A DNA stretch of 64,000 nt. Source: a virus (Duplodnaviria > Caudoviricetes). The stretch is from positions 11,222 to 75,221 of the IMG/VR virus record IMGVR_UViG_3300031994_000071. One strand, given 5' to 3'. Under the pieces are notes generated by a model that worked only from the letters and a program-made list of their open reading frames with translations, searched no databases and was not told the DNA's origin. Within the stretch, counting starts at the first letter, position 1, and every line of letters begins with the position of its first letter. Shown piece after piece: positions 2,769 to 51,577 of this stretch. The position numbers were made by a program, and so were the translations under genes.

Positions 2769-2950
2769 GTAAAGTAAAGGTTTCCGCCAAATCAGGGAAG
2801 CGTGGCACGAAAGTTGCAGAAAGCAAAGTTCGTGTCACGCGCTCTGGTAATGGACGGGGCAAGAGGTTGTTCCAGACCACGGCGCAGGTGACGCTCAGGA
2901 CGTCAACAACGAGAAATGGACAACCGAGACCGAAGAGCAGCGGATCTTAA
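2765..2950 (+). CDS. Small very basic hypothetical protein
   Basis: ATGA overlap with the endolysin stop; K/R-rich; contains a sigma54 site, so it may not be expressed as a protein. Confidence 0.5.
   Translation: MSKVKVSAKSGKRGTKVAESKVRVTRSGNGRGKRLFQTTAQVTLRTSTTRNGQPRPKSSGS
2803..2818 (+). promoter_or_regulatory. sigma54-type -24/-12 site
   Basis: TGGCACG-AAAG-TTGCA upstream of 2916. Confidence 0.65.
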
Positions 2951-3317
2951 ATTCCTTGTAAGCACCCTGCGCCGCGTAACGACAGCGGTACAGGTCCTTC
3001 CTTTTGTATATTCGGCAATCAGCATCATTATACTCTCGTGCTACAACCTAATCCCGGAGGATGCACAGTATAATATAGACATGCTGTTTTATATCTCGCC
3101 GGTCACTATTGTCGCATTCCTGTTACTTTCCAAGTTGCTACATCTATGCAAGTGGCATAAAACCGCCTGCATTATACCGGCCATTCCGCAAGTGGTGAGC
3201 CTGGTTGACTATTATATCTACACATTAACGGACCTCGGCGTCAATATCGTGAACATCGTCCTTGTATCCATGACGGTGCTCCTACTCGTTGCCGCCTACA
3301 AAGTATTTTTCAAATGA
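2916..3317 (+). CDS. Membrane protein (3-4 TM), possible holin
   Basis: Several hydrophobic segments, basic C-terminus, near the endolysin. Confidence 0.5.
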   Translation: MDNRDRRAADLKFLVSTLRRVTTAVQVLPFVYSAISIIILSCYNLIPEDAQYNIDMLFYISPVTIVAFLLLSKLLHLCKWHKTACIIPAIPQVVSLVDYYIYTLTDLGVNIVNIVLVSMTVLLLVAAYKVFFK

Positions 3318-3610
3318 TAAACGAAGAAAATGACATCGTACTGGACGTCCTCGACTTCATCCGGGACCAGTACAAGGAGGGCAGATGCACGAAGCGCCAG
3401 ACTGACGTGATTTATGATGCCGCGCTCAACATCGTTGACGCATACGCCACCTCCGACGAACTCGCCAGGCACTTCGGCAAGACCGTGGAAGCCGTGCATG
3501 GCGTCATCAAGCGCAGGATGACCGAAAAGCCCAAGAAGAACATCACCCTTTATTCCTTCCGCGCCTTCCGAAAATGTGTACCTAAGGGATGGCTGCATAA
3601 GAAACAGTAA
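3314..3610 (+). CDS. Hypothetical, possible DNA-binding protein
   Basis: ATGA overlap; helix-turn-helix-like SDELARHFGKTVEAVHGVIKR. Confidence 0.65.
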   Translation: MINEENDIVLDVLDFIRDQYKEGRCTKRQTDVIYDAALNIVDAYATSDELARHFGKTVEAVHGVIKRRMTEKPKKNITLYSFRAFRKCVPKGWLHKKQ

Positions 3611-3703
3611 ATCACCGACATATCTTTATTTCATCCGGCACATTCCGTGTCGGATTTTTGTGCCCAACTTTGCATCGTGTTTAACCTCTAAAACCAATGC
3701 AAA

Positions 3704-4606
3704 ATGGCAGAAGAAAAAACTTATGTCTTTGGTGACGGGAACAACAATGTTCCTCTCGCCTACGCTCTGAACGGCGGCAATGGTAACGGCTTCTTCGGCG
3801 GAAACGGCGGTGCTTGGGGAGGTGGACTTATCGGCTTCATTCTCGGTATTCTCCTTGGGAATAACGGGAATGGCCTTGGTGGTATTCTTGGTGGCGGTAA
3901 CGGCGGCACCCTCGCTGGTGTGACTGGTCGTGAAGCCATCATGAACGCTATCAATGGCACCGATGCCGATGTCCGCTCTCTGGCGGCCACCATGAATGCC
4001 GATGTGAACGAACTCCGTTCCGCTCTCAGCACCATCGCTTCCGGCCTTGCTACCGTCGGCTCCCAGGTTGGCATGTCTGCCCTCCAGGTTGTCAACGCCA
4101 TCCAGGCTGGTAACAGCGGCCTCGCCTCTCAACTGGCGCAGTGTTGCTGCGAAAATCGTCTCCTCACTACCCAGCAGGGTTATGAGGCGCAGATTCGCAC
4201 CTTGGAGCAGACCAATGCGCTCGGCTCCCAGGCCGACCGGAACACCCGTTCCATCACGGACGCCATCAGCGCCCAGACCATCGCCATGAACGACCAGTTC
4301 TGCGCACTCAAGAACCGCGAGTACGAGTCCGAGATTGCCCGTCTCAAGACGGAACTCGCCAACTCCGCACGTGCTGCTGACAAGGCCGAGATTCTTGGCG
4401 GCGTCAACGCTATCGTGGCTCCTCTGGCCGCTCAGGTAGCAGCCATCAAGCAGTCGATGCCTCCGACTGTTGCCGTACCTTATCCTCAGTTGCAGGCTAT
4501 TCCGAGTTTCAACACTCTGGAACTGCTCGCCAATCTGAGCATCGTGCGCAACATCTTCGGTGGCAATACGACCGAGACTCCAACCACAACTCCAGCAACA
4601 GCGTAA
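3704..4606 (+). CDS. Conserved phage protein with Gly-rich N-terminus, CCC motif and coiled coil
   Basis: 300 aa, strong codon bias, LAQCCCENRL motif. Confidence 0.8.
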   Translation: MAEEKTYVFGDGNNNVPLAYALNGGNGNGFFGGNGGAWGGGLIGFILGILLGNNGNGLGGILGGGNGGTLAGVTGREAIMNAINGTDADVRSLAATMNADVNELRSALSTIASGLATVGSQVGMSALQVVNAIQAGNSGLASQLAQCCCENRLLTTQQGYEAQIRTLEQTNALGSQADRNTRSITDAISAQTIAMNDQFCALKNREYESEIARLKTELANSARAADKAEILGGVNAIVAPLAAQVAAIKQSMPPTVAVPYPQLQAIPSFNTLELLANLSIVRNIFGGNTTETPTTTPATA

Positions 4607-4607
4607 T

Positions 4608-5126
4608 ATGTTATCAGGATTGAGACAGGGGGCGCCTATTTATGTCCTCTACAAGAACGAATTGAAGACTGCCATCGGCGAAGTGGTCGCCGTGAGCAAT
4701 CCTGTACCGCAGTATGGTACAACCTACAACGCCGGTATTCTGGCCCAGCCAAAGACCGTCGTGGACGTCCGCGTCCGCATCGGCTCTGAAACGGTTGACT
4801 TCCAGAAGTTACCGGCAGACCAGTCCATCGCTGACTTCGGGCCTAACGGTATCGTAATCAGCGAGACCAGGGACGGTATCTTGGCCGAGATTGACGCTTA
4901 CCAGAAGCGCTCGGAGACCGCCCTGGCCGAGACGCCCAGGCACGAGCAGATTATTGCTGCCTGTAAGAGTATGCGCAGCGAACTGGACCCGGCCATCCGG
5001 AAGGAGGCCGAGCAGACCGCTGAGATAGCAAACCTCAAGAAAGGTATGGCCGACATGCGGGATGACCTTGCAGACATAAAGGCCCTCCTGTCGAAGTCCC
5101 TTAACCGTAAACCAAAGGAGGATTAA
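4608..5126 (+). CDS. Hypothetical protein, C-terminal coiled coil
   Basis: ATG 1 nt after the upstream stop. Confidence 0.8.
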   Translation: MLSGLRQGAPIYVLYKNELKTAIGEVVAVSNPVPQYGTTYNAGILAQPKTVVDVRVRIGSETVDFQKLPADQSIADFGPNGIVISETRDGILAEIDAYQKRSETALAETPRHEQIIAACKSMRSELDPAIRKEAEQTAEIANLKKGMADMRDDLADIKALLSKSLNRKPKED

Positions 5127-5128
5127 CT

Positions 5129-5350
5129 ATGGGTTGGAACATGCTCAAAGAACGCAGCGGAGGTTCGGACGTGTCCGACTTCAAGAAGGCTGCCAAGATG
5201 GCCAAAAAGGGCCTGGAAATCATGTGCGAAATCGCTGCCGACATGGCCGATGAGTACGATGAGTTCAGCGAACGTGACAGCGACTGGGATGATGACGAGC
5301 CTCACGTGAGGGAACGTCGCCGCCGCAGGAGCAACGGACGCTTCATGTAG
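5129..5350 (+). CDS. Hypothetical protein (acidic then Arg-rich C-terminus)
   Basis: Tight operon packing; ends RERRRRRSNGRFM. Confidence 0.75.
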   Translation: MGWNMLKERSGGSDVSDFKKAAKMAKKGLEIMCEIAADMADEYDEFSERDSDWDDDEPHVRERRRRRSNGRFM

Positions 5351-5358
5351 TGGATCGG

Positions 5359-5383
5359 GGGGCGGGGAAACTCGCCCCTTTTT
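5359..5383 (+). terminator. Rho-independent terminator
   Basis: GGGGCGGG-GAAA-CTCGCCCC followed by T5. Confidence 0.8.
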
Positions 5384-5399
5384 AACTTATAAGTTAAGT

Positions 5400-5801
5400 A
5401 TGAACAGACTTGATTATTATGACATAACTCCAGCCGGAATGGACGCATATATGTCTAATTACGGTCGGCACTTCTCGAAGGCGCTCTACGAGTGGGCCGT
5501 ATCCATGATGAAGGACAGGAACGGCGTTAAAGTTCAGGCAATGTCCAAGCAGGAGGTTGACGAGAAGATGAAAGCGGCAAGCGTGACCGTTGAGCGCGAT
5601 ATGGGATACGACGTGCCGTACACCTATATGATGGCCAAGGCCGATTATATGGGGTCTTCTATTGCCGACGAGCAACACCTGGCCAAGTTCGTGAAGGATT
5701 ACCTTGATGACAAGGACGGCTCTGACACCAGGGCTTTTGACGAGTTCTATGCCAAGACGATAGCGCTCGGCATTCCTATCATGTGGGAGGATGTTATTTA
5801 G
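5400..5801 (+). CDS. Conserved hypothetical phage protein
   Basis: 133-aa ORF with AT-rich upstream start region. Confidence 0.8.
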   Translation: MNRLDYYDITPAGMDAYMSNYGRHFSKALYEWAVSMMKDRNGVKVQAMSKQEVDEKMKAASVTVERDMGYDVPYTYMMAKADYMGSSIADEQHLAKFVKDYLDDKDGSDTRAFDEFYAKTIALGIPIMWEDVI

Positions 5802-6195
5802 GAGGATTGAAATACTCCGGTGGGAGGTGATTTTCCTTTTCGATTACGAGGAGATTAACCGTGGGAGTGTTCTACGGCAGTTAGTCAACGCCGGTGCTCC
5901 CGATTCCGTTCTCCATCGCATCTCCGAGAAAATCGAAGACGGAAATATGGACGAGGGTTTTACCTATCCAAACCCGGAACGGCAGATTGCGGTTGTCGGC
6001 GTCGGGCACGCATCCTCCGGACCGGAGTTTCTTTCCTCGTTTTGCCACGAATTAAGGCACCTGACAGACGCAATCGCCTCGGACAAGGGAATTCCCCTCC
6101 GAGGCGAGAAAGTGTCTTATTTGACAGGAGAAATATCGCGGAAGGTGGCAGATGCTGTCTGCGTCTTCTCCTGCCCTTACTGCCGTCATGAGTAG
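5791..6195 (+). CDS. Hypothetical, possible metallopeptidase-like (HELRH)
   Basis: HExxH motif CHELRH; last gene of the plus block. Confidence 0.6.
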   Translation: MLFRRIEILRWEVIFLFDYEEINRGSVLRQLVNAGAPDSVLHRISEKIEDGNMDEGFTYPNPERQIAVVGVGHASSGPEFLSSFCHELRHLTDAIASDKGIPLRGEKVSYLTGEISRKVADAVCVFSCPYCRHE

Positions 6196-10954: not shown

Positions 10955-11557
10955 TTATTCTTCTTCTTTGGTTTCAGTTTCTTCTTCCTCGGCAGCATCA
11001 AGGGAAAAATCAAACATGCCCTCGAAGGGGTTTTCCTTGCCGCCGCCCATAAACATAGACATGGCCATCATCTGACCTATTCCGCTGTTCTTTCCGTTGT
11101 CTCCTTCCATCATCTGAGAGAACATCATCATCTTGATGACGTTGCCCATGCCCTTGCCGCCCTGGAAGGCGTTACCGAACATGGAGACAATCTTTCCGTA
11201 GAAGTAGGTGCTGCCCATGAACACGTGGCGCTCCGGCACCACCTGGCGCACCTCACTGTTCTCGTAGTCGATGACCGTGATGATCTTCTTGTCAACGGCG
11301 GTGACGCACTTGGGCTTGTCACCGACGATGATGATGTCACCAACGGCTACCTTGTTGGTAGGGATGACGAAAAACATCTCGTCACCGATGTTGAAGCAGA
11401 AGTTGGTGACGTTCGTGAGCGTCCCCTTCTTCACGTTGTAGGACTTGTACCCGTTGCTGCACTTGACGGCCACATTGCCGTTCATGGTAAGCCGACACAT
11501 GCCGGGAGCAATCTTACCGAACATGCCATTGAAGGCATTCTGAATGTTTTCAAACAT
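10955..11557 (-). CDS. Conserved hypothetical protein, first gene of the vWA/PurA-like operon
   Basis: 200 aa, beta-rich N-terminus, Met/Gly-rich C-terminus, strong codon bias. Confidence 0.85.
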   Translation of the reverse strand: MFENIQNAFNGMFGKIAPGMCRLTMNGNVAVKCSNGYKSYNVKKGTLTNVTNFCFNIGDEMFFVIPTNKVAVGDIIIVGDKPKCVTAVDKKIITVIDYENSEVRQVVPERHVFMGSTYFYGKIVSMFGNAFQGGKGMGNVIKMMMFSQMMEGDNGKNSGIGQMMAMSMFMGGGKENPFEGMFDFSLDAAEEEETETKEEE

Positions 11558-11770
11558 GACTCTTTTTAATTTTGGTTTTTGGTCTCTTAATCTTAATCAG
11601 TACGTCCGGCGGGACGATCTTGTCCTCTCCCAGGACGCGGATGATAACCAGCGGAGCGTTCGTAAATACGTCCCTCGTGAGGCTATCAATGAAAGCGAAG
11701 TGGTGTTTTACCCCCCCCTATTGGCCGGGATTTTCACCTTCAATCCTACGGTACATTCTTCAATTTTCAT
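11550..11770 (-). pseudogene. Small gene interrupted at a G8 tract (73 aa if G9)
   Basis: ATG 11770 reads MKIEECTVGLKVKIPANRGG then TAA right after G8 (11711-11718); the shifted frame runs VKHHFAFIDS...KKSHV-TGA and overlaps the ATG at 11557. Confidence 0.65.
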
Positions 11771-11774
11771 GCCA

Positions 11775-12516: not shown

Positions 12517-13170
12517 CTACTCTCCTTCCGGCTCCTCTTCCATACCGGGAAGGGTGGCCTCGGTCTGGATGGGCATGATGATGGCGGAAGGTCCGGCCTT
12601 CTGGTCCTCCTCCATCACAGACTTGATGAAAATCTTCCCGTCCGCCTGGGTAAAGTCCATCTGGACGCTATCCATGTTGAGCGCCTGGGAAATCTTGTGG
12701 AGCAGCGCGGTGTTGATGCCCACCTTGTTGAGCGGCTTCCATCCGTCCTCGGTAGCCAGGAACCCTTCAATCTTCTGCACGAATTCCTTGTCGGACCGCT
12801 CCAGACGGAAGCGCACCTGTTCGCCCTGGTACACGGCCTTGATGTACACGACCGGCTCGGCCTCCTCCAGGAGGTTGTCGTAGGCGTCCTCAGTGGTGAG
12901 CGTCTTTTCGATGGTCACGACGTCGAAGCCGTAGATGAGTTTGAGGATCTTCGCGTGGACGCAGAAGCCGTTGAGTGAAGCAATCTGTTCGTCATCGAAC
13001 GGAGTGCAGTAAGTAAGGGGCACCCTGATAATGATGTGCCTGTCGGTTGCGTAGGCATTACCGTGCTCGAAATACACGCGCTCAGTGTTGCCGTCCGTCG
13101 AGGATTCAGCCTTCTCGCAAGCGGCGAAAAGTTTGTAATCCTTTTTGAAGTTAATCCTTTCTTTTGCCAT
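12517..13170 (-). CDS. Protein resembling a partial DNA polymerase III beta-clamp fold
   Basis: YFEHGNAYATDRHIIIRV resembles the clamp VATDGHRL strand; 217 aa with acidic tail. Confidence 0.5.
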   Translation of the reverse strand: MAKERINFKKDYKLFAACEKAESSTDGNTERVYFEHGNAYATDRHIIIRVPLTYCTPFDDEQIASLNGFCVHAKILKLIYGFDVVTIEKTLTTEDAYDNLLEEAEPVVYIKAVYQGEQVRFRLERSDKEFVQKIEGFLATEDGWKPLNKVGINTALLHKISQALNMDSVQMDFTQADGKIFIKSVMEEDQKAGPSAIIMPIQTEATLPGMEEEPEGE

Positions 13171-41275: not shown

Positions 41276-41276
41276 T

Positions 41277-41771
41277 ATGAAAAAGATTTGGTCAAAAATT
41301 CAAATGTTCTGGTTCTTCCATTTCGCAAACCCGGTTGTTTGGATGGGAGAAAACGTCGGCTTCAAGTACACCTTCAGTAAGTTCTGGCTGGACATTTCCA
41401 CGAAATCCGGCAACTGGAAGATGCGTGTGATGGCCGATGAGCACCCATACGCGTACCTGCTTGCTGGAGTGCAGCAGGGAAACGAAAAAAACGTTTTCGG
41501 CTTCGCCGAAACGTTGTACATGCAGGTCTTCACCCTCACCCGTGATCAGGGCCTCGTGAACGACGTCCAGAAGGCCATCAAGAAGTACCAGGCCCGGCTC
41601 GTTAAGTCGAATCCGGCTTCGCCGGACGAGGAGCGGGAGGCTCTTGAGGAAGTAAAGGCCGTCCAGGAATACGTGGACGCAACGCCGAAGGAGCGCAGGA
41701 AGATGGAGCGCGGCATCAATCGCCGCTTCAAAAAGGCCGTTAAGGCACAGAATTTGCAGGAGACAAAGTAA
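41277..41771 (+). CDS. Hypothetical protein
   Basis: Co-oriented ORF. Confidence 0.7.
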   Translation: MKKIWSKIQMFWFFHFANPVVWMGENVGFKYTFSKFWLDISTKSGNWKMRVMADEHPYAYLLAGVQQGNEKNVFGFAETLYMQVFTLTRDQGLVNDVQKAIKKYQARLVKSNPASPDEEREALEEVKAVQEYVDATPKERRKMERGINRRFKKAVKAQNLQETK

Positions 41772-41783
41772 AAATTTCGCGTT

Positions 41784-42392
41784 ATGGAAGAAGGAATTTA
41801 TTACAAGAGAGGCTCCAAGTCAGATTTCGCTGGCGTGGAGATTCTTGGGGACGCAATGGTAATCCCCAGGGCGATTATCGAAGAGATTGCTTTCCATGAG
41901 AACTTGAAGGTCCAGGGAAAGAACGAACGTGAGCGCTGGACGTGCAAACTCCAGGGCATCGACAAGCCCATGCTGCTCAATGCCACGAACCGTAAGAGGC
42001 TTGCAAAGCGCTTCTGGGATACTCCCGTGGCGGACGGCACTCCGTGCCATGGCCGTCTGAATCTGCTGAGCGGCCTCGGCCTGGCTATCCGTCTGGATTC
42101 CGAGCCTTGCCGCGATCCGAGTGACGGTGAAATGACTGTCGGTCTTCGTGTGTCGAAGTTCGACCCGGACCCCGCTCCCGCTGCACCGGCCCCTGCGGCC
42201 AAGAAGGTCATCACCGAGGAGGTGATTGAGAAGACCGTGAAGTGGGCCAAGGAGAAGGGCCTTACCTTTGAACAGGTGGCCGAGAAGTTCGATTTCGCCA
42301 ACGAGACCGTAAAGGATGCCGTGCAGGATGCCATGACTCCCGAACCCCAGGCGCCTGCCGAGGAAAAGAAAGAGGACGATTTACCCGTATAA
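41784..42392 (+). CDS. Putative ssDNA-annealing/recombination protein
   Basis: KPMLLNATN motif; acidic DDLPV end; next to a YqaJ exonuclease. Confidence 0.6.
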   Translation: MEEGIYYKRGSKSDFAGVEILGDAMVIPRAIIEEIAFHENLKVQGKNERERWTCKLQGIDKPMLLNATNRKRLAKRFWDTPVADGTPCHGRLNLLSGLGLAIRLDSEPCRDPSDGEMTVGLRVSKFDPDPAPAAPAPAAKKVITEEVIEKTVKWAKEKGLTFEQVAEKFDFANETVKDAVQDAMTPEPQAPAEEKKEDDLPV

Positions 42393-42395
42393 CCT

Positions 42396-43154
42396 ATGGA
42401 TAAGGAATTTGAATGGAAGCAGAAGCGGTGCGGAATGATTACCGCTTCCGAACTTGGCTCAATCACGAGCAAAAGTGGAAAGATTATTGACGGATGCCTG
42501 TCTTACATCCGCTCCAAGCGCTTCGAGCGCAAGCATGGCTACACTCTGCCGGTTTCGGCGAAGACCATGGATATCGGCAACGAGCAGGAGCCGTATATCT
42601 ATCAGTGGGCCGTTGCGAACCTCGGCCTTCCCGGCCTGATTTACTCCAAGGACCTCGAAGAGATTCCTTTCTGGGTTGCTCCGGACTGCCCCATGGGCGC
42701 ATCACCGGATTCTTATACTCCGGACGAGCGCATTGTGGTTGAGTTCAAGTGCCTGGTGGGAAACACTGCCACCGAGTTCTTTGATGATGACTATACGTCC
42801 TATCTTGAGAAGAAGGAGGCGGTATGGGACGACCATGGCCCACAGATACTCGGCCAGTTCATTTCCCGTCCCTCTGTTGAGGAAATTTGGCTCGTGAAGT
42901 ACATCTATCAGAACGATGACATCATCGAGGATAACGACGATCCGAACGAGCATTGGCGTGGCACCGTATTCAAGTTCGCCAGGAAGGACTACGTGGAGTC
43001 CATTAAGGCTATGAAGGAGCGCATCCGTCTGTTTGACGCGATGATTGACGCCAAGATCAATCCTTCCGAGTTCAAGGTTGGCGAGTGGTCTGTTATTGAC
43101 GGTGAGTTGAAGCAGAGCATCGTCGAGAAGCCTGAAAAACCGAAGAAGAAATGA
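42396..43154 (+). CDS. YqaJ / lambda-exonuclease-family nuclease
   Basis: WKQKRCGMITASE, MDIGNEQEP, GASPD, VEFKC. Confidence 0.9.
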   Translation: MDKEFEWKQKRCGMITASELGSITSKSGKIIDGCLSYIRSKRFERKHGYTLPVSAKTMDIGNEQEPYIYQWAVANLGLPGLIYSKDLEEIPFWVAPDCPMGASPDSYTPDERIVVEFKCLVGNTATEFFDDDYTSYLEKKEAVWDDHGPQILGQFISRPSVEEIWLVKYIYQNDDIIEDNDDPNEHWRGTVFKFARKDYVESIKAMKERIRLFDAMIDAKINPSEFKVGEWSVIDGELKQSIVEKPEKPKKK

Positions 43155-43345
43155 GTACCCCTTGGACAGTAGAAGAACTGCTCGATCTTGATGCGAATTA
43201 CATCCGTGTCAATGACGTAAGGGCCGTTAAACTCCGTGAAATCCGTGATGGCGTTTATCGCGCCATCCGGATGCCCGGATGTTCGCTTGGCGATTATTTC
43301 CGTGTCCTATCTTGGGCGCATGACAAAGGATATGATGTGATATGA
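43151..43345 (+). CDS. Hypothetical protein
   Basis: ATGA overlaps. Confidence 0.6.
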   Translation: MSTPWTVEELLDLDANYIRVNDVRAVKLREIRDGVYRAIRMPGCSLGDYFRVLSWAHDKGYDVI

Positions 43346-43962
43346 GACAGTTGCTGAACAGAACTTCCGCGCCTACTGTGGTGCGCTTTTTTGACGTATG
43401 CTTCAAGCAGGGCGTTATTGATGCCTGCGTATTCGCAGACGATTACGGCGCACAGGAGTTTCTGAAACAGCATCGTGAAAAATGGGACTTCGGCGTCCTT
43501 GGCGAGCCAGACGATTACGACTGGGAGATGTGGCGGTTTACACTGTACAGGTGGGCACGGCAGCATCACTACATGAAGTTCTCGTCCGACTTCATTTATC
43601 GCATCGTAAACAAGACGTACCTTTGGTATTTCCTGCCGTATTGTATGCAGTTCTACCTGATGGGTATAGAGGAGTGGCTTGAGTACCCGAATCCCGTCAA
43701 GATGGAGATTTTCAAGGGTGAAAACCGTATCCATTGGAAGCCGGTGGAGCGGCATCTTCGGAAGATAACCACGGATGACACCATCTCGTACATGCAGGAG
43801 TTCTGTTACAACTTCCGCAGAAGTCCGCTCTCCGAGGGCGACGATAGGGTTATGAATCCGAACGCCCTGGACGCCTTCTGTCAGGCCATTCACGATTTAA
43901 CAAGGAAGTATGACACGAGGAAAAGGCTACGAATTAAGGAGTTCGCCAAAAAAGACCTTTAA
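43342..43962 (+). CDS. Hypothetical aromatic-rich protein
   Basis: 206-aa co-oriented ORF. Confidence 0.7.
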   Translation: MRQLLNRTSAPTVVRFFDVCFKQGVIDACVFADDYGAQEFLKQHREKWDFGVLGEPDDYDWEMWRFTLYRWARQHHYMKFSSDFIYRIVNKTYLWYFLPYCMQFYLMGIEEWLEYPNPVKMEIFKGENRIHWKPVERHLRKITTDDTISYMQEFCYNFRRSPLSEGDDRVMNPNALDAFCQAIHDLTRKYDTRKRLRIKEFAKKDL

Positions 43963-44284
43963 GCCCCAGCACGATTTCCCTGGCGATCCGTGGCTTGATT
44001 ATATCCTGCTGCCATACGGTGCCTTCTATGAGAAGACGAGGGTTTTCCTGGAGGCGAAGAACGGTGACGTGATGCAGTTCTCGGATGGGCCTGAGGTGCT
44101 GATTGACTCAGTGACCTTGGTGGAGGGCGAAAGGATGTGTGACGTATTGTGCCGGATTAGGTACGGAGTGAAATTTAAGGTTGCCTTCAACCAATGGCTG
44201 AGATACGCGAGGATTGAAGGCCATGGTAAGGATATTTTGGTTCCAGATAAGTGCATAATGGTTGTGTATGGCAAAAAGAAGTGA
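43910..44284 (+). CDS. Hypothetical protein (start uncertain)
   Basis: Co-oriented ORF. Confidence 0.6.
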   Translation: MTRGKGYELRSSPKKTFKPQHDFPGDPWLDYILLPYGAFYEKTRVFLEAKNGDVMQFSDGPEVLIDSVTLVEGERMCDVLCRIRYGVKFKVAFNQWLRYARIEGHGKDILVPDKCIMVVYGKKK

Positions 44285-44522
44285 AGAATGGAAGAGACGC
44301 AGGGCCGACGTGTTGCCAGGGCGTCTTGATTGGGCAAAGAAGCGGTTTGCGCAGGCCGGGATTCCTCTTGTGAAGGAAAGCGACATGGCGCTGATTGTAA
44401 GGGTGCGGTGTCACAATGTAACGTACTATCCGTTTACGGGCTGGTTCTTTGGCAAGGGCATCAAGGATGGTCGTGGCCTCGAAAATCTGATTAAGCAATG
44501 CCAAGCAGGAGATCATCAGTAA
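44262..44522 (+). CDS. Conserved hypothetical protein
   Basis: VTYYPFTGWFFGKGIKDGRGLENLIKQ. Confidence 0.75.
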   Translation: MCMAKRSEEWKRRRADVLPGRLDWAKKRFAQAGIPLVKESDMALIVRVRCHNVTYYPFTGWFFGKGIKDGRGLENLIKQCQAGDHQ

Positions 44523-44851
44523 AGCAGGCACCCGCCGTGGTGCCGCCGACGTATTACAGGATCCAAGCGAAGTTCGCTCCGGACATCTTCTTCCCGTCCA
44601 ATGCTCTGGAGGATAGGTTCTGGAAGCGGTCTGGCAACGAGAACGTGCGGTTTACGACCTTGGACGATAAGAACTGCATTCCGAAATTCATAAGAACAAC
44701 CAACAACCGGGATGGAGAATACGATAGTGATTTTGACAATTTTTGTCAACGGATGTTCGGCCTGCCGTTCGTGAACATCAAATCAATGTGGATATCACGT
44801 TTGGGGAAGGTGGATTACTATTGGCATTGGGTGAAACTTGTTGAGGAATAA
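44498..44851 (+). CDS. Hypothetical protein
   Basis: TAATG coupling to the helicase. Confidence 0.65.
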   Translation: MPSRRSSVKQAPAVVPPTYYRIQAKFAPDIFFPSNALEDRFWKRSGNENVRFTTLDDKNCIPKFIRTTNNRDGEYDSDFDNFCQRMFGLPFVNIKSMWISRLGKVDYYWHWVKLVEE

Positions 44852-46338
44852 TGGAATTACGAGACTATCAGAAGGAAAGTGTTGACGAACTGCGGGTTGC
44901 TCTCAGGAGTTACCGGCATGTAATCTTTCAGTTACCCACCGGAGGAGGGAAGGGTGTCGTGATTGGTGCCGTATCGTCCATGGCGCTGAGCAAGGGGAAT
45001 CGCATCCTTATCCTTGCCCACAGTGAGGAAATCATAAAGCAGGATGCCGCCCACTGCGGAAGATGGGGTGCCGAAACGGCTGTTGTGTTGTCCAAGACAA
45101 AGAAGGCCCCCGGTGCGCCATGCGTGTGTATGATGGCCCAGACGGCCCGGCAGCGCGTGAAGAAGGATGACTGGCTGCGGTGGTTCCGTGGTTTCAAGAT
45201 GATCATTCTGGATGAGTGCCACAGGGCTGAATTTGACTTTGTTTTTGATATCGTGTTGTCAGAAACATACGTAATCGGCCTGTCGGCCTCACCGGCCAGA
45301 TATGGGAGCCAGCGTCAACTCGGCTTGGACTATGAGGCCATCGTTACCGGCCCGACAGTGCAAAATCTGATAGATCTTGGCTTCCTTTGTAAATGCCGCC
45401 TCTTCTCGCTTGATGCCCCGAGGATGGATGATGTCGAGTGGTCCGCTGGCCGTGGCGACTACAATCTGAGCCAGATGGCCGACAAGTTCAAATCACAGGC
45501 CAGGTATGTCGGCGCCGTGGAAAACTACCAGCGCATCTGTCCGGGCGAGAAGTGTCTGGTGTTCTGCTGTTCCTCCGAGCAGACTATCCAGGTGACAAAG
45601 GCATTCTGTGAGGCCGGGATTGATGCCAGGTATTGCTTGTCGGGAGACTTTGATGAGGATGAGGAGTACAGCGGCGAGCGTAAGGACGTCATAGATGGGT
45701 TTGCGCGTGGCGATTTTCCGGTCCTGGTCAACTTTGGCCTGTTTACTACCGGCCTGGACATACCGGATATCAAAGTCGTGATGCTCATGTTTTCCACTAC
45801 CTCCCTCGTCAAGTACCTCCAGTGCCTTGGTCGTGCCAGCCGTCCTGCTCCTGGGAAGAACGGTGAGTTTATCTGCATGGACTTCGGCTTGAATTTCGAG
45901 CGCCTTGGCCGATACGAGGATGACAGGGAGTGGGGCGTGTGGCATAAGCCAGGGGCCGGTGGCGGAGTGGCGCCAACGAAGATATGCCCGCAGTGCCAGA
46001 AGATGATTGCGGTTCAGTATTCGGACTGCCCATTCTGCGGCTACCACTTCCCCACGAAGCAGGAGACTTTCCGGGCCGAGTTGCAGGAGATTGTTGACAA
46101 GAGGAATTACGATCGAAAGCAGACCGTGGAAGAGTATGTGGCCCAGATGAAGTTGCAGGGGAAGAATACGAACTGGATTCTTGTGCAGGTCTGCATACTG
46201 AACAGCAAGGAGAAGAAGGCCGCATTCCAGAGGGCCGCAAAGGTCCTGGGATTGAATCCCAAATACTACTACTTTTTCAGCAAGAATATATTAAGCAAGG
46301 TGAAAATCACCGAAGATTCAGATCCAAAATTATTGTAA
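44851..46338 (+). CDS. SF2 DEAD/DEAH-box helicase with Zn finger
   Basis: LRDYQ, LPTGGGKG, LDECH, GLSASP, TTGLD, QCLGRASR, CPQC..CPFC. Confidence 0.95.
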   Translation: MELRDYQKESVDELRVALRSYRHVIFQLPTGGGKGVVIGAVSSMALSKGNRILILAHSEEIIKQDAAHCGRWGAETAVVLSKTKKAPGAPCVCMMAQTARQRVKKDDWLRWFRGFKMIILDECHRAEFDFVFDIVLSETYVIGLSASPARYGSQRQLGLDYEAIVTGPTVQNLIDLGFLCKCRLFSLDAPRMDDVEWSAGRGDYNLSQMADKFKSQARYVGAVENYQRICPGEKCLVFCCSSEQTIQVTKAFCEAGIDARYCLSGDFDEDEEYSGERKDVIDGFARGDFPVLVNFGLFTTGLDIPDIKVVMLMFSTTSLVKYLQCLGRASRPAPGKNGEFICMDFGLNFERLGRYEDDREWGVWHKPGAGGGVAPTKICPQCQKMIAVQYSDCPFCGYHFPTKQETFRAELQEIVDKRNYDRKQTVEEYVAQMKLQGKNTNWILVQVCILNSKEKKAAFQRAAKVLGLNPKYYYFFSKNILSKVKITEDSDPKLL

Positions 46339-46339
46339 T

Positions 46340-46669
46340 ATGGTAGTTCATGAAAACACATGGCCATGGGGCCAAAGTCTTGATTTCATAGCCGATGGCG
46401 GACATGGCTGTGTATCAGTATCGTTTGAAAAATCGAATCCTGGAGTTGCGTATATTTCTGGACTCAGCGTGATTCCACAGTACAGAAGGAACGGCATCGC
46501 CACGAGGCTTTTGGAGCGTTGTGAGGACGAGTGTAAAAGTCGTGGAATTTTCCGGATAGACCTCAACTCGGTCATGGAGCCTTTCGTTGTATCGTTCTAT
46601 GAAAAGCATGGCTTCACGAGGATTCGCGAGCAGGATGACATGATTCTTATGTACAAAATCATAAGGTAA
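46340..46669 (+). CDS. GNAT-family acetyltransferase
   Basis: ISGLSVIPQYRRNGIATRLL and SFYEKHGF motifs. Confidence 0.9.
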   Translation: MVVHENTWPWGQSLDFIADGGHGCVSVSFEKSNPGVAYISGLSVIPQYRRNGIATRLLERCEDECKSRGIFRIDLNSVMEPFVVSFYEKHGFTRIREQDDMILMYKIIR

Positions 46670-47073
46670 TGGCAACGACACCGACACCGCCGAATCCGTA
46701 CAATAAGAGGCACCGGCAGGCGCCAGAAATGATAATCCAGGCCGCTTGCGTCAAGGCGGCTTGGAATGATTTTCCCGAGACCAGGAACCTCCTGTTTCAT
46801 GTCGCAAACGAGATGGACGATGGCGGAAGCGGCTACCTGGGTGCCAGGCGTCGTGCGGAAGGCATCGTCAGGGGCGTTTCCGACCTCATCCTGCTCATTC
46901 CTCGCGGTGGATATCACGGTCTCTGTATCGAATTGAAGACGGATACCGGCTATCAGTCACCATACCAAAAGGCTTGGGAGGCTGCTGTTAAAGCACAGGG
47001 GTACATGTATGTTGTTGTGCGGTCCGAAGAGGAATTTCGCAGGGTGTTAAGGGATTATCTCAGTAAAAAGTAG
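46669..47073 (+). CDS. VRR-NUC nuclease
   Basis: LFHVAN, GVSDL, LCIELKT..GYQSPYQKAW, GYMYVVVRS. Confidence 0.92.
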   Translation: MATTPTPPNPYNKRHRQAPEMIIQAACVKAAWNDFPETRNLLFHVANEMDDGGSGYLGARRRAEGIVRGVSDLILLIPRGGYHGLCIELKTDTGYQSPYQKAWEAAVKAQGYMYVVVRSEEEFRRVLRDYLSKK

Positions 47074-47081
47074 TATCTTTG
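47074..47081 (+). promoter_or_regulatory. Primary-sigma -7 element 7 nt before ATG
   Basis: TATCTTTG-tcgcact-ATG. Confidence 0.6.
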
Positions 47082-47088
47082 TCGCACT

Positions 47089-47715
47089 ATGGCTAAAGGA
47101 ATGATACCGTTAAGGCCGGAGAACTATGCTGCAACCGGCCTCACCCAAGAAGAACAGACGTGCTTAACCTGGCACGTTATTTCTGGCTGTACGCGCAGGG
47201 ATGCTTTCATCGCCTTCGCCCGTCCAGACATGCTCAACTCCAGAGCGCAGGCTGCTATTGACGAGTATGTCCGTCAGTTCTTCGCCAGGAAGGAGGTAAA
47301 GGAATACCTGGTGGCCTACCAGACCACGCTGGATAATTTCCTGAACCCAGCCAAGGACTTGAAGCCGTTTGCCCCAGAGTTATCCCTGGAGGAGAGGAAG
47401 GCGAAGTCCAAGGAAAAACTCACCGAATTCTCCATGTCCCTTATCCAGAACATCGACCAGGCAAAGGACCCTGAGATGGTCATGAAGTTGGCCGATAAAA
47501 TCGGACTACTGGACATTGACGAGAAGGCGCCGGAGGAACCTCGCCGGTATCTTCCCGTCTCCTGCGGCCAGTGTGCATACCGTCAATTCTGCGAGGAAAA
47601 TACGGAGGACATGTGCAAATTCTGTAAATATCACCATGAATGCGAGCAGCATGGCATACATTTTGATAAAGAAGAGATGTTAGACATTCAAATAAAAACC
47701 GAAGATGAAAAATGA
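47089..47715 (+). CDS. Hypothetical, candidate terminase small subunit with Cys-rich C-terminus
   Basis: N-terminal HTH-like segment, coiled middle, CGQC..C....C..C...C tail; own promoter. Confidence 0.5.
   Translation: MAKGMIPLRPENYAATGLTQEEQTCLTWHVISGCTRRDAFIAFARPDMLNSRAQAAIDEYVRQFFARKEVKEYLVAYQTTLDNFLNPAKDLKPFAPELSLEERKAKSKEKLTEFSMSLIQNIDQAKDPEMVMKLADKIGLLDIDEKAPEEPRRYLPVSCGQCAYRQFCEENTEDMCKFCKYHHECEQHGIHFDKEEMLDIQIKTEDEK
47652..47666 (+). promoter_or_regulatory. sigma54-like site (TTGA variant)
   Basis: TGGCATA-CATT-TTGA, 39 nt before ATG 47705. Confidence 0.5.
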
Positions 47716-48058
47716 AGTAACAGGGCGAATTACCCAAGTCCTCCCGCTTGAACGGGGAACGAGTCAGCGTGGAGAATGGCTCTCCGCAAAAGTTGTAATC
47801 GAGTATGAGTCTGGGCGCTATAACAGCACTTTGTGCCTTGAGTGCCGCAACAACCGTGCCGAGGAATTCTCGAAACTCCGCGCTGGTCAGAAGGGTACCT
47901 TCTACTACGATGTGACGAGCCGTGAATACAACGGAAAGTGGTATCACAACGTGAACTGCTTCGACTGGAAGATTGAGGGCGCTGCCGCTCCTGCACCTGC
48001 TCCCGCTCCGGCGCCTGGCAACAACGGTGCCGCATCCACTGACGGCGATCCGTTCTAA
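47705..48058 (+). CDS. DUF3127-like OB-fold ssDNA-binding protein
   Basis: GRITQVLPLERG...W, SREYNGKWYHNVNCFDW, acidic DPF tail. Confidence 0.85.
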   Translation: MKNEVTGRITQVLPLERGTSQRGEWLSAKVVIEYESGRYNSTLCLECRNNRAEEFSKLRAGQKGTFYYDVTSREYNGKWYHNVNCFDWKIEGAAAPAPAPAPAPGNNGAASTDGDPF

Positions 48059-48090
48059 ACGTTCTAAAACCTTGCTTGCGTGTCATTCTT

Positions 48091-48121
48091 TTTGGAATGG
48101 CACGCTTTTTGCTTATATTTG
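48091..48121 (+). promoter_or_regulatory. Nested primary-sigma and sigma54 promoters with no downstream ORF
   Basis: TTTG(48091)-N19-TATATTTG(48114) enclosing TGGCACG-CTTT-TTGCT (48098-48113). Confidence 0.7.
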
Positions 48122-48158
48122 TATCGGATTTTCTAAAATGGTTATAGAATTAGGAATG

Positions 48159-48188
48159 AAAAAGGGCCGCTGTGAAGCGCCCCTTTTT
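48159..48188. terminator. Bidirectional terminator between converging blocks
   Basis: AAAAAGGG-CCGC-TGTGAA-GCGC-CCCTTTTT. Confidence 0.75.
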
Positions 48189-48190
48189 CT

Positions 48191-49777
48191 TTACTCCTGG
48201 ATTGTCCGTCCAGCGCTGCTGTTGCTGACTCCCGGTTTACTTGGGTTGGTCTCCTCACCGGATGTCCCGGTATCAACTCCATATTGTGCCTTGACCTTCG
48301 CGGGAATCTCGGACTTGATTTGCAGTTCATATTCCCACTCTTCCTTGATCTTGCCGTAGTCACCGACATGCTGGGAGCCGAGGTCTTCCATAGCGGCCTC
48401 GCGGGATTTGATGCGGGCGTACACCTGGTCGCATTCATTCTTGACCTGCTCGGCGACATTCTGCGGCATCCAGATGTTCGGCCCGACGGAAACGCGGAGT
48501 TTCGCGTAACGGTCGGGATTTCCTTCCTCAACACCCACCAATGCTATGATGACATTGATAAGGTCGCGGACACCCTTAAAGAACTGGGGCCATACGTTCT
48601 GGCACCACTGAATCTCCGGAGCGAACATAATCTTGATGGTCGTGCTGGAGTCTGCGCCCTGCTTGAGCACGTCCGGCTCCACGAATACAGACATGCAGGT
48701 ACGGACGATGTTGTTCCAGAGGTTTTCCAGGTGGATGGTCGCAACGTTGCTGGCATCCGGCGGGTCCAGGAACTTCGCATCGCTATGGGCGAGCGCGTCT
48801 GCGCTGCCCTTCACGCCGATGGTCTTGCCGTTCATTTCGGAAGGCGGCAGACTTACCAGTTTCTCGGTCTTGAGGAACAGGATCGGGAAGGCGGTGTTCT
48901 TCATTTCCTCGGACATGTAGGAACAGGCATCCTCCAGGGCCTCGATGGAGAGTTGGGCCGGGCCGGTAGGAATATCGTCAACGCGGAAATAGATGCACTG
49001 AACGCGCCGCCCGGCCTGGTTGGCTACCTTCTTCACGAGGACGTAATCATCCTCGCTTTTGGTGCGGCCTTCCTTCGGGATGATGGAATCGTCATCATCG
49101 TCGAGGACCATCCACGTTTCCATGCCGTCCGGCGTGAAGATGTCAACGGCTGCGTGGTTGTCGAACGTGTACTTCCTGGCCACGATGGTTTTTCCGTTGA
49201 TGTCGGTCTTCGGGTAGAGTACGGAACCCTCCTCGTATCCGAATACCTGGTAATCAATGCCGTTCTCGTCACGGTACACATAGATGGCGCCGTCTCCTGT
49301 GCGGAATACCGAGCGGACGAGTTGGATCCAAGCGGCCTTGTTGATACCGGACATGTCAAGCCAGGATATTACCTTGTCAAAAGCCTCCTTATCCTCGGTC
49401 TCATTGGCAATCCAGAATCCGTCACCGGCGAAGTGGGAGATCTTCTTTCCGATGATGCACTCCTGGATGCCGAGGGCAACCGTCTCGACGTCATCATATC
49501 CGACGAGTTCCCATTTGGTCCTTCCCTTGGAATCCTTGATGCCGGTGTCCTTGAAGATAGGGCGCTTGGACATGTACTTGGAGTTTATGTCGTGGGCGCT
49601 TGGAGTGATCTCATTAAGGAAGTCCTCCTGCCGCAGAGTGATAAATGTACCGGCTGGCGGTACCACTGTGCGGCGCTTGTTCCTTCCTTTCTGATTCTGC
49701 TCCAAGACGGGTGCCCCGACAAGGCGGCGAGTCCACAACCGCTTTTTCGAGTCGTTAATGTAATCAGAAATTCGCAT
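48191..49777 (-). CDS. Portal protein
   Basis: 528 aa downstream of terL; FRTGDGAIYVY, SPP1-portal-like layout. Confidence 0.8.
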   Translation of the reverse strand: MRISDYINDSKKRLWTRRLVGAPVLEQNQKGRNKRRTVVPPAGTFITLRQEDFLNEITPSAHDINSKYMSKRPIFKDTGIKDSKGRTKWELVGYDDVETVALGIQECIIGKKISHFAGDGFWIANETEDKEAFDKVISWLDMSGINKAAWIQLVRSVFRTGDGAIYVYRDENGIDYQVFGYEEGSVLYPKTDINGKTIVARKYTFDNHAAVDIFTPDGMETWMVLDDDDDSIIPKEGRTKSEDDYVLVKKVANQAGRRVQCIYFRVDDIPTGPAQLSIEALEDACSYMSEEMKNTAFPILFLKTEKLVSLPPSEMNGKTIGVKGSADALAHSDAKFLDPPDASNVATIHLENLWNNIVRTCMSVFVEPDVLKQGADSSTTIKIMFAPEIQWCQNVWPQFFKGVRDLINVIIALVGVEEGNPDRYAKLRVSVGPNIWMPQNVAEQVKNECDQVYARIKSREAAMEDLGSQHVGDYGKIKEEWEYELQIKSEIPAKVKAQYGVDTGTSGEETNPSKPGVSNSSAGRTIQE

Positions 49778-49789
49778 AGCCTATGTAAA

Positions 49790-51532
49790 TTAAATCCAAA
49801 CGACGGAGCGTCCTCCGCCATAATCTTGAAATAGTCCTGAGTACGCCGAATCGTCAATTTCCTTTTCCGGCTGCTTCTTCGGCCTCGCGTCAAGTTCAAA
49901 GACTGCGCGATAAGTGAACGGGTCCATGAGGCCGGGGGATTCGTGGAACCTGGCGATATACTCGTCCTTGCTCCGGTAGAGGATCTTCTTGTTTTTCTGC
50001 CCCTTGATGAACACGTTTTTCTCGTTGTAGAGAATATCTATGATGCGGCGCTTGCCGCCCTTTTTTCCATAGGGAATCTGCATATTGAGGTCCAGGGTCG
50101 TGCAGAAGAATCCGGTCTTGAACAGGACCTCGGTTTTCGCAAGGAGTTGCGAGCGCAGGTTGAAGTATTGTTCGATGGTGACAGGGTTTCCCTGCTCATC
50201 GTATTCCTGCATCGGCGTTTTGTTCGGAGTGATTGGAATGCCCTCCTTGAATGCGGTGAGGTAGTATCCGATGCCGGTGGCATCAAACGCAAAGTTCTGT
50301 CTCGGCACGCCCCAGTGGTCCAATTTTTGGTCAATCCAGTCGAGCAGTTGCTTCGGGTCCCCACGGAATGCCTCAACGCCTACCCAGCAGTTGCCCTGGA
50401 AGATGAGCATGAGGTTATCATCGCTCTTGAGTTTACCGCCAGACACGTCCATGGTGGCGTACATGTTCTCATCGCTATTTCTCGGGTTGGTCTCCATGGC
50501 CCGGAAGTCTGCGTCCGCGACGCCAACGGACTCATCGTCGGTCGGCCCGAAATAAGCCTCAGCAAGGACGGCACGCTGAGCGGCGCCTACGTTGTGAAGG
50601 TTCGCCACGGATTGTCCCCTGGTTGCGGCCACAAGTTTTCTGTTGCCTGCGGCGGAGCCGGTGAACAGGACGAAGGATTTCACCATGTCGGCCTCGGTCA
50701 GTCCTGCTGCGCGGTCATCGTCGCTGATTCTGATGTGGGCGGCCTCAACCACTTCCTCCTTGGAATCTCCCCAGACAACCGCCGTCGGATCATCACCCTT
50801 GATATAGAAGTAGCGCTTTTTGCCATCCATTTCCGGGATGATGTACCAGGTCTTCGGGTTGATGTATCCGCCGGTGATGAGGAACTGGGTTGTCCAGTGT
50901 CCGTATTTCGGGTTGAAGGACAGTACCATGCAAGGCTCTACGCCTGACGCATCACGGTTACGCGAGAACATGTATGCGAACATCCTGAACTGCTCGATGG
51001 CCGTGGCCTCGTCGATTCCGATGTAAGCGGCCTGCTGCTTTTTGATGTACTCCTGGAACTCGTCCCACTCCTTCGGATTCTCCGGATTAAAGTTCGCGTG
51101 AATCATCTGGATAGCGTTGTTCCAGATTGGCCATGCGAACGTAGGTAGTTCTCCGGTTGTTGTTTCGCAATGTGAGAATTCGCCCCAGACGAATGAGGCG
51201 TCACGGTGCATGGACGTACCCTTGGCGGAGTCCAACTTACGCACGTTGATGAGACGCCCGGTGTATCCATACTTACCGACACCGTTTAATCCCTTGAGCA
51301 TCATGCCGAACGTCTTCCCGGAAGTTGCCTGTCCGCAAATAAATATAAGATTCGCCTCGCACTTGCACAGGTTTTCCTGGAGGCCCTCCTGCGGGATGAG
51401 GTCGATTCCGTCCCTCAGCACGAAATCTCCCACTTTGTCCCATCCCTTATCTTTGACTGTGGCTATTTTCCGCTCGACGTGTTCGTATCGCTCGGGAAAT
51501 GCTATATCGGTATGGATCAGTTTGAACATCAC
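49790..51532 (-). CDS. terL: Terminase large subunit
   Basis: LIPQEG-Q motif, GQATSGKT (Walker A), IGIDEAT (Walker B), LSFNP, ATMDVSG nuclease domain. Confidence 0.92.
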   Translation of the reverse strand: MMFKLIHTDIAFPERYEHVERKIATVKDKGWDKVGDFVLRDGIDLIPQEGLQENLCKCEANLIFICGQATSGKTFGMMLKGLNGVGKYGYTGRLINVRKLDSAKGTSMHRDASFVWGEFSHCETTTGELPTFAWPIWNNAIQMIHANFNPENPKEWDEFQEYIKKQQAAYIGIDEATAIEQFRMFAYMFSRNRDASGVEPCMVLSFNPKYGHWTTQFLITGGYINPKTWYIIPEMDGKKRYFYIKGDDPTAVVWGDSKEEVVEAAHIRISDDDRAAGLTEADMVKSFVLFTGSAAGNRKLVAATRGQSVANLHNVGAAQRAVLAEAYFGPTDDESVGVADADFRAMETNPRNSDENMYATMDVSGGKLKSDDNLMLIFQGNCWVGVEAFRGDPKQLLDWIDQKLDHWGVPRQNFAFDATGIGYYLTAFKEGIPITPNKTPMQEYDEQGNPVTIEQYFNLRSQLLAKTEVLFKTGFFCTTLDLNMQIPYGKKGGKRRIIDILYNEKNVFIKGQKNKKILYRSKDEYIARFHESPGLMDPFTYRAVFELDARPKKQPEKEIDDSAYSGLFQDYGGGRSVVWI

Positions 51533-51534
51533 CG

Positions 51535-51577
51535 CAAAGATACGAAAAAGGGGCGATTATTTGCAAAATGTGTGCCG
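51535..51577 (-). promoter_or_regulatory. terL promoter: primary-sigma TTTG-N21-TATCTTTG overlapped by a sigma54-like site
   Basis: Minus strand TATCTTTG 51542-51535, TTTG 51567-51564, CGGCACA-CATT-TTGCA 51577-51562. Confidence 0.65.

Follow-up and report, generated by a model that had tools for sequence, protein, structure and literature searches.

The DNA analysed here is a window of 64,000 nucleotides, bases 11,222-75,221 of IMG/VR record IMGVR_UViG_3300031994_000071, the 75,221-bp genome of an uncultured tailed phage that CheckV rates as complete. We found that this phage, hereafter G000, carries about twelve clean σ54 (-24/-12) promoter boxes once ambiguous sites are relabelled, and that these lie in its two non-structural gene blocks, plus one after the endolysin gene. 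σ54 promoters open only with an ATP-driven AAA+ activator, the bacterial enhancer-binding protein (bEBP), and because of this requirement they appear a poor choice for a virus. We consider it fairly probable that the boxes are promoters for the host Eσ54 holoenzyme serving the non-structural blocks, and that they would be opened by a host bEBP, with the activator of the chaperone regulon as the best candidate. Feature coordinates are window positions unless marked as genome positions.

The original prediction listed nine exact copies of TGGCAYR-N4-TTGCW and roughly expected about 0.1 by chance. We recovered the same nine sites in the window (2803+, 13874-, 15277-, 23804-, 26532-, 32796-, 33190+, 33912+ and 48098+), and dinucleotide shuffles gave a mean of 0.07 (0/100 shuffles reached nine). 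When the -12 element was relaxed to TTGNW, 14 sites were found in the window against 0.27 expected. The five TTGA/TTGT variants listed earlier are all real, with two coordinates one base off (11759 and 20660, not 11760 and 20661), and the CGG variant at 51562-51577 on the minus strand is also real. A wider scan added 41743+ (AGGCACAGAATTTGCA), the CGG variant 51562-, 33563+ (TGGCCCTAAATTTGCA) and a weak site at 38711+. No such sites lie in the 11.2 kb of the genome that precede the window. All 12 specified positions match the σ54 consensus TGGCACG-N4-TTGCW and the spacing is exact, and the -12 C is absent in 5/17 G000 sites.

Genes were called with a self-trained simple open reading frame (ORF) caller, which also set the start positions, and were annotated by Pfam and PHROG scans. 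Every G000 site points along its own gene block, as had been claimed. Likewise, the claim that most boxes lie about 25-60 nt before a start codon agrees with our count: a start codon lies within 60 nt for 12 of the 17 G000 sites that score at least 16 bits, and the TTGCA end is typically 25-33 nt before the ATG. Several boxes overlap the last codons of the preceding gene, which was also part of the original prediction. If RpoN binds these boxes, transcripts would start about 12 nt after TTGCA. The boxes of the non-structural blocks, and the one past the endolysin gene, are as follows.

2803-2818, plus strand: σ54 box TGGCACGAAAGTTGCA, just past the endolysin gene and 97 nt before ORF 2916-3317.
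11759-11774, minus strand: box with -12 TTGAA, 201 nt before gene 10955-11557; a short ORF and a poly-G tract intervene.
13874-13889, minus strand: σ54 box, 27 nt before the GT2 glycosyltransferase gene 13151-13846.
15277-15292, minus strand: σ54 box, within the end of gene 15256-15537 and 26 nt before gene 15050-15250.
20660-20675, minus strand: box with -12 TTGTA, 56 nt before the resolvase-domain gene 19836-20603.
23804-23819, minus strand: σ54 box, 33 nt before the WYL_2 gene 23468-23770.
26532-26547, minus strand: σ54 box, 29 nt before gene 25738-26502; in the same place in the relative G001.
32796-32811, minus strand: σ54 box, the leftward one of the divergent pair, which heads a leader of about 565 nt and the 26-kb small-gene block.
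33190-33205, plus strand: σ54 box, the rightward one of the divergent pair, followed by about 400 nt of repeat-rich non-coding DNA and then gene 33604.
33912-33927, plus strand: σ54 box, in the last codons of the helix-turn-helix (HTH) gene and 29 nt before the RNase T-type exonuclease gene 33957-34547; kept in G001.
36431-36446, plus strand: box with -12 TTGAA, which ends 2 nt before ATG 36449 and is too close to serve it.
37848-37863, plus strand: box with TTGAA, 26 nt before gene 37890-38144 and the tRNA-Phe/Met/Leu cluster.
41743-41758, plus strand: box AGGCACAGAATTTGCA, 25 nt before gene 41784-42392.
47652-47667, plus strand: box with TTGAT, 37 nt before the DUF3127 gene 47705-48058.

The boxes at 32796 and 33190 form the divergent pair described in the original prediction, and they flank the 1.4-kb non-coding centre of the genome.

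Six-frame searches of the whole 75,221-bp genome with hidden Markov models gave no match to PF00158, PF04552, PF04963, PF04542 (σ70 region 2) or PF00004, while a Bacteroides thetaiotaomicron control matched the RpoN families in the same searches. No phage σ factor or RNA polymerase gene was found in G000. A loop of the GAFTGA type was not present in any frame of the six genomes compared here (G000 and the five relatives described below). In G000 the only Walker A motifs are those of the D5 primase-helicase, the terminase and one protein of the tail-gene region. One weak match to σ70 region 4 was rejected since it falls in an HNH endonuclease. In the relatives, the proteins with weak PF00158 matches look on inspection like an ATPase in G002 and G003 and an SF2 helicase in G001. 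The ATPase is a 490-aa protein (G002:16513-17985, minus strand; G003:61771-63237, plus strand) which is absent from G000 and accounts for the weak PF00158 matches of these two relatives; by eye it looks like the ComM/Mg-chelatase type. Thus the earlier statement that no σ factor or activator is visible holds for the full genome, including the part outside the window that the bEBP search covered, and as regards the activator it holds for the family too. Since the phage has neither RpoN nor a bEBP, host RpoN is the most likely reader of the boxes. With neither σ54 nor an AAA+ activator encoded by the phage, a bEBP of the host would have to carry out the opening step.

A search with the D5 primase gave 16 related IMG/VR loci, and five complete relatives (G001-G005) were compared with G000. 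Their primases are 75-91% identical to that of G000 and most other proteins 35-60%. The exact pattern occurs one to six times in each relative, and the pattern read backwards does not occur. A position weight matrix (PWM) was built from the G000 sites, so that its results are independent for the relatives only. With a minimum score of 16 bits it found 15, 7, 8, 11 and 5 sites in the five relatives, and none in the reversed sequences. Across the six genomes 57/63 sites (17 from G000 and 46 from relatives) are co-oriented with the surrounding genes, and the median distance from box to start in the relatives is 25 nt. The original prediction would lead one to expect sense-strand, start-proximal sites in a full scan, and this is the bias that the PWM gave in the genome and its relatives. 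The -12 C is absent in 14/46 of the sites in relatives.

Two individual boxes can be followed through the family. Orthologs of gene 41784 have a box 19-26 nt upstream in four of the five relatives, and orthologs of the DUF3127 gene 47705 have an upstream box in all five. The ortholog proteins are 35-46% identical, their flanks cannot be aligned and the peptides that span the boxes differ (VKAQNLQ, LDGTDIV, KNGTVFD, DWARHPFC). Because the position of the box is kept while flanks and peptides differ, selection acts on the DNA motif and not on the peptide. We also observed that in G002 (about 40693-40800) and G005 (about 36260-36370) the DUF3127 box is followed by a terminator-like hairpin before the ATG, in a leader of 92-102 nt. 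This hairpin may be an attenuator.

The host of this phage is a Bacteroidales bacterium, probably from the rumen. The nearest relatives of the large terminase TerL, the major capsid protein and the helicase belong to the Parabacteroides phages PF672P1/P2, the Bacteroides phages LoVEphage and BI-TP1 and the Phocaeicola phage PV4-TP1. The frequency of Shine-Dalgarno-like 4-mers ahead of start codons is close to background (15-29% against 10-13%), and the leaders are rich in A. The assignment rests on these nearest cultured phages, the near-background Shine-Dalgarno sites and the canonical Bacteroidota σA promoter of the late operon; the groES loci of a presumed rumen series, described below, point the same way. 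A search of species genomes for the major capsid protein, as a sign of a prophage or host, found nothing. The dUTPase (37406-37843, plus strand) has its nearest relatives in genomes at 36-51% identity, mostly in rumen or gut metagenome-assembled genomes (MAGs) of Firmicutes type, with one Elusimicrobia MAG and one Bacteriovoracaceae MAG among them. The structural genes differ from it in that their affinity is with Bacteroidales. We read the affinity of the dUTPase as gene exchange and not as evidence of the host, because the Shine-Dalgarno sites are near background and the σA promoters are of Bacteroidota type.

Bacteroidota in general have σ54, and in a map of transcription start sites of Flavobacterium psychrophilum groESL, lon, dnaK, grpE-dnaJ, htpG and clpB are under the σ54 motif SM4 (PMC9723704). 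The chaperone cluster has high basal expression in this organism (PMC9723704 supplement). The mapped groS promoter carries AAAATGTCAG 11 nt upstream of its box, which has a -12 element of CTGAA, and the mapped clpB promoter carries ACATTTTGTCC 11 nt upstream of a box with TTGAC (PMC9723704). A passage of a further report cites B. thetaiotaomicron groES and grpE as σ54 promoters (PMC12316311).

We scanned metagenomes for TGGCAY-N5-TTG located 30-60 nt before a GroES N-terminus, recognised by a GroES motif. At least 120 stretches matched, and the figures that follow are for the 80 loci listed, with 70 distinct promoters. Several of these loci carry contig names of a series that we take to be rumen samples, and for one listed locus of this presumed series the nearest clusters of its GroEL are Bacteroidota. 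The base after TTG in the 70 listed promoters is C in 40, T in 19 and A in 11, so that 30/70 lack the -12 C. The loss of this base in the phage boxes thus falls within the range in which the host's own promoters work. The palindrome TGACA-N3-TGTCA, with at most one mismatch, was found in 31/66 listed promoters with at least 250 nt of upstream sequence, and in none of the shuffles. Half-sites occur in the listed promoters at 23.5/kb from 0 to 40 nt and at 12.1/kb from 40 to 80 nt upstream of the box, and at about 3/kb further out. The distances from palindrome to box cluster at 3, 11-13, 23, 33, 44, 54 and 65 nt, which is helical phasing in steps of about 10 bp. These palindromes lie closer to the box than classical enhancers do. 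No second box with a palindrome was found in the 80 listed loci, and a 397-398-aa protein with GAFTGA lies 2.5 kb upstream of groES in only 2/80 of them (L064 and L101).

A palindrome of this kind is also found in the control region of the phage, between the divergent boxes. It was the only repeat of enhancer type to emerge from the search for such elements.

32946-32998, no strand: three copies of CTGACAAWATGGCAG spaced by 19 bp, 136-231 nt from the boxes.

These copies match the host groES palindrome CTGACAAAATGTCAG at 14 or 13 of 15 positions, and the variants in the listed groES promoters include TGACA-N3-TGGCA, which is the form found in the phage. The DNA between the palindromes and the divergent boxes is A/T-rich, and the palindromes are conserved in G001 and G003. 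As far as their sequence goes, the central repeats are copies of the host's chaperone-promoter palindrome, and they would act as an enhancer for the divergent pair. CTGACAAAATGGCAG is a candidate for the target of the DNA-binding domain of the putative bEBP. We also observed ATGTAGTT/AACTACA repeats (up to five in each relative) and long T-tracts beside the divergent promoters (33250-33500 in G000, and the centres of G002-G005). These repeats may be origin iterons or the sites of a regulator.

It is quite possible, although it is not the reading that we favour, that the three copies of CTGACAAWATGGCAG are operators for a repressor or Cro-like protein, such as the product of the adjacent HTH gene, or origin iterons, and not an enhancer. 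An HTH gene alongside three palindromes that are evenly spaced between divergent promoters is the classic layout of a phage immunity region. Moreover, the repeats persist in G003, whose flanking σ54 boxes are degenerate, and the ATGTAGTT-type repeats of the same region are iteron-like. On the other hand, half-site and spacing are those of the palindrome at the σ54 boxes of Bacteroidota groES and of F. psychrophilum groS and clpB, and a distance of 136-231 nt with intervening A/T tracts is normal for enhancers.

The canonical Bacteroidota σA promoter, TTTG-N19-21-TAnnTTTG, was found five times against 0.5 expected. It is present at the late operon, at the terminase and primase genes and at the site 48091-48121. 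The relevant σA promoters and the boxes that overlap σA elements are listed here.

51581-51612, plus strand: σA promoter TTTG-N20-TATTTTTG, 31 nt before the late structural operon; conserved in G001, G003 and G004.
38721-38751, plus strand: σA promoter of the D5 primase-helicase gene, whose -33 TTTG falls in the weak box 38711-38726.
33563-33578, plus strand: TGGCCCTAAATTTGCA, upstream of the HTH gene 33604-33960 and containing the -7 box TAAATTTG.
51562-51577, minus strand: the CGG-variant box CGGCACACATTTTGCA, whose TTTG is the -33 element of the terminase σA promoter 51535-51567.
48098-48113, plus strand: box that forms the 3' arm of the terminator-like hairpin 48078-48105, inside the spacer of the full σA promoter 48091-48121.

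The late structural operon has no σ54 box and has the σA promoter instead. The site at 33563 is probably the σA promoter of the HTH gene, since it contains the -7 box TAAATTTG and a full -33 TTTG is present in G001. The weak box at 38711-38726 (plus strand) overlaps the 3' end of tRNA-Leu, and the terminase σA promoter 51535-51567 ends 5 nt before the terminase ATG. Box 48098+ has no ORF downstream; its nesting with hairpin and σA promoter recurs in G001 and G004. The original prediction assigned early, middle and some late genes to host RpoN. The boxes of the non-structural blocks agree with this, while its only late site, 51562- at the terminase, and also 48098+ are ambiguous with σA. We considered whether the TTTGCA half of the boxes could be a general σA -33 element and rejected this, because a -7 box is correctly spaced only for 38711 and 51562. 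The scan for the σA pattern found no -7 box downstream of typical σ54 boxes.

The region 48078-48190 is in itself a compact block end in which four elements overlap: the hairpin, the σA promoter, the nested box and, at about 48165-48186, another hairpin that is bidirectional. The region might give rise to an RNA of about 65 nt that runs antisense towards the portal gene.

The gene map on which these sites lie is as follows.

1-6,000: endolysin gene (1977-2768) and a few rightward genes.
6,186-32,220: leftward block of about 75 small genes over 26 kb, including those for a GT2 glycosyltransferase, a resolvase-domain protein and a WYL_2 protein.
Between the two divergent non-structural blocks: non-coding centre of 1.4 kb.
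33,604-48,058: rightward replication/recombination block.
38284-38716, plus strand: cluster of tRNA-Phe(GAA), tRNA-Met(CAT) and tRNA-Leu(AAG), between box 37848 and the primase promoter.
48,191-51,532: leftward portal and terminase genes.
From 51,644: rightward structural operon.

The rightward block has genes for three tRNAs and for an HTH protein, an RNase T-type exonuclease, an HNH endonuclease, a Dam methylase, a dUTPase, the D5 primase-helicase, a YqaJ-type exonuclease, an SF2 helicase, a GNAT protein, a VRR-NUC nuclease and DUF3127. The leftward block has two further features. A Pistol ribozyme (RF02679; 31781-31863, minus strand) scores 56.6 bits against a gathering score of 34.5 and lies directly 3' of the first gene of the leftward operon (31864-32220), and thus within the transcript from box 32796. 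The leader of about 565 nt contains, at 32301-32540, three exact copies of AAGCCGTTCA and variants of it amid GC-rich hairpins. At the ends of the record, genome positions 1-407 and 74815-75221 (window 63594-64000) are 97% identical, with 13 mismatches in 407 nt. Since the first and last 407 nt are nearly identical, the genome is circular or permuted, with the contig break inside the tape-measure gene. Two co-assembled variants probably account for the imperfect overlap.

The reading that we favour can be put as a sequence of steps. Host RpoN-RNA polymerase would read the boxes that head or subdivide the leftward small-gene block and the rightward replication/recombination block, and the late structural operon would be left to its ordinary Bacteroidota σA promoter. 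ATP-driven opening would be supplied by the protein that activates the host's regulon for chaperones and protein quality control. The three central palindromes would recruit this activator to the divergent boxes, whereas the internal boxes, which have no such sites, would fire more weakly or respond to activator that acts from solution. The non-structural programme would then follow the proteotoxic-stress state of the host. Two points make the chaperone-regulon bEBP the best candidate: its route is constantly active, and the control region of the phage contains its site. The original prediction left the choice between a host activator, an unrecognised phage activator and an activator-independent route. 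The first of these is favoured here, and the other two are not needed given the chaperone σ54 promoters of Bacteroidota (PMC9723704) and the shared palindrome.

Several observations weigh against this reading. The central palindromes are absent from G002, G004 and G005, and G003 keeps them although its flanking boxes are degenerate. They lie 136-231 nt from the boxes, against 3-65 nt in hosts. The internal phage boxes have 3.2 and 2.4 half-sites/kb (0-40 and 40-80 nt upstream) against 2.0 genome-wide, and no 7-mer or 8-mer common to the 220 nt upstream of the boxes is significant. Since there is neither a shared k-mer nor an enrichment of half-sites, most boxes are without a visible enhancer. 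None of the phage boxes has the architecture of the SM4 chaperone promoters, in which the palindrome lies within about 70 nt upstream of the box. Four sites (33563, 38711, 48098 and 51562) overlap σA elements, a terminator hairpin or a tRNA end. Finally, the nearer cultured relatives Parabacteroides phage PF672P2 and Bacteroides phage BI-TP1 showed no box network when scanned. The distant cultured Cellulophaga phage phi38:2 showed none in the scan either. No ready laboratory model was found.

The internal boxes without an enhancer leave room for other explanations: they might be activated weakly and constitutively, hold silent complexes that are poised, or depend on a phage factor of a new kind. 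The boxes could bind host Eσ54 and be mostly unproductive, either as decoys that draw the holoenzyme away from stress genes or as roadblocks or insulators. Such a role would fit the fact that most boxes are without an enhancer-like site, that 48098+ is nested in a σA promoter and hairpin with no gene downstream (a nesting kept in G001 and G004), and that 51562- overlaps a σA -33 element; moreover, it is established that σ54 closed complexes are stable without an activator. We regard it as unlikely, however, since decoys have no need of the fixed orientation and the start distance of 25-33 nt that are observed, since the boxes hold their place before orthologous genes, and since phages usually need the host chaperones and not their suppression. 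Slightly less likely still, in our estimate, is that the σ54 promoters open without a host bEBP, by means of a new non-AAA+ phage protein (a small early protein or the HTH protein of gene 33604-33960) or of the -12 variants. The phage has about 75 small genes of unassigned function, its internal boxes are without an enhancer, and the -12 C is missing in 5/17 G000 sites and 14/46 sites of relatives. Wang and Gralla (1998) are said to have found that -12 mutations increase unactivated σ54 transcription in Escherichia coli. Yet the host groES boxes lack the -12 C as often (30/70 of those listed) while they are flanked by activator-type palindromes, and the Pfam and PHROG scans found no relevant domain in any candidate protein. 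To our knowledge no natural σ54 system independent of a bEBP is established. That the internal boxes in particular open without an AAA+ activator, through a small phage protein which remodels σ54 or through the -12 variants, seems to us improbable.

It is also conceivable, and we rate it very improbable, that the reader is not σ54 and is a phage DNA-binding protein or another host σ factor, in which case the likeness to -24/-12 promoters would be coincidental. Some sites overlap σA elements, and in the upstream gene codons for Gly-Thr often run through part of the motif. Against this, the match to the σ54 consensus covers 12/12 specified positions with exact spacing, the peptides that span the boxes differ among genomes, no phage σ or RNA polymerase gene was found, and the typical sites have no σA -7 box downstream.

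The original prediction also knew of no described phage regulon of this kind. There is a published precedent, since the Pseudomonas aeruginosa phage YuA (Yuavirus) has been reported as dependent on host σ54 for its development (in a passage of PMC5053324 that cites Ceyssens 2008), and ONT-cappable-seq in YuA gave one σ54-like promoter with its transcription start site, P015 (PMC10914365). Like YuA, G000 is tailed, encodes no RNA polymerase, RpoN or bEBP and carries σ54-type promoters for the host to read. The original YuA paper reportedly described three σ54-type promoters, in the particle-formation and lysis region. Unlike YuA with its few promoters, G000 has a dozen or more boxes, in non-structural blocks and for a Bacteroidota host, and these are conserved in the family and accompanied by a palindrome of the host type. 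Our literature searches did not turn up a published phage with a dozen σ54 promoters, whether from Bacteroidota or from any other host. Phage use of σ54 is thus rare and has a precedent; what is new here is the phylum, the scale, the non-structural genes and the copied host palindrome.

The phage promoters resemble the SM4 chaperone promoters of Bacteroidota in the box itself, in the frequent loss of the -12 C and in the TGACA-N3-TG(T/G)CA palindrome of the phage centre. They differ in that the palindrome lies 3-65 nt upstream in hosts, whereas the phage has no palindrome at its internal boxes and a gap of 136-231 nt between box and palindrome at its centre. With classical divergent σ54 promoters (glnAp2, pspA/pspF and the nifH type) they share GG and GC elements 10 bp apart and palindromic repeats 100-250 bp upstream, with A/T-rich DNA in between. 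Unlike these, the phage has no gene for a cognate activator and most of its boxes are without upstream sites. Activation from solution would be a known route for σ54 promoters that lack such upstream activator sites. FlgR and CtcC are bEBPs without a DNA-binding domain. The promiscuous AAA+ domain of DctD activates from solution, independently of an enhancer, in Salmonella (PMC3844500). Extended to the bEBPs of Bacteroidales, the DctD type of activation would be an analogy only.

YuA is the only phage documented as σ54-dependent. In Bacteroidota, σ54 keeps chaperone genes at a high basal level, and this would make it a dependable, stress-boosted route that is open to phages. The finding points to the still-unnamed heat-shock activator of the Bacteroidota and to its binding site, and the boxes would be an easy means of recognising early and middle promoters when Bacteroidota phages are annotated. 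Opening of the internal boxes without an AAA+ protein, if true, would be the first natural case in which the need for a bEBP is bypassed. If the reading that we favour is true, the gene expression of these phages would be tied to protein-folding stress in the host.

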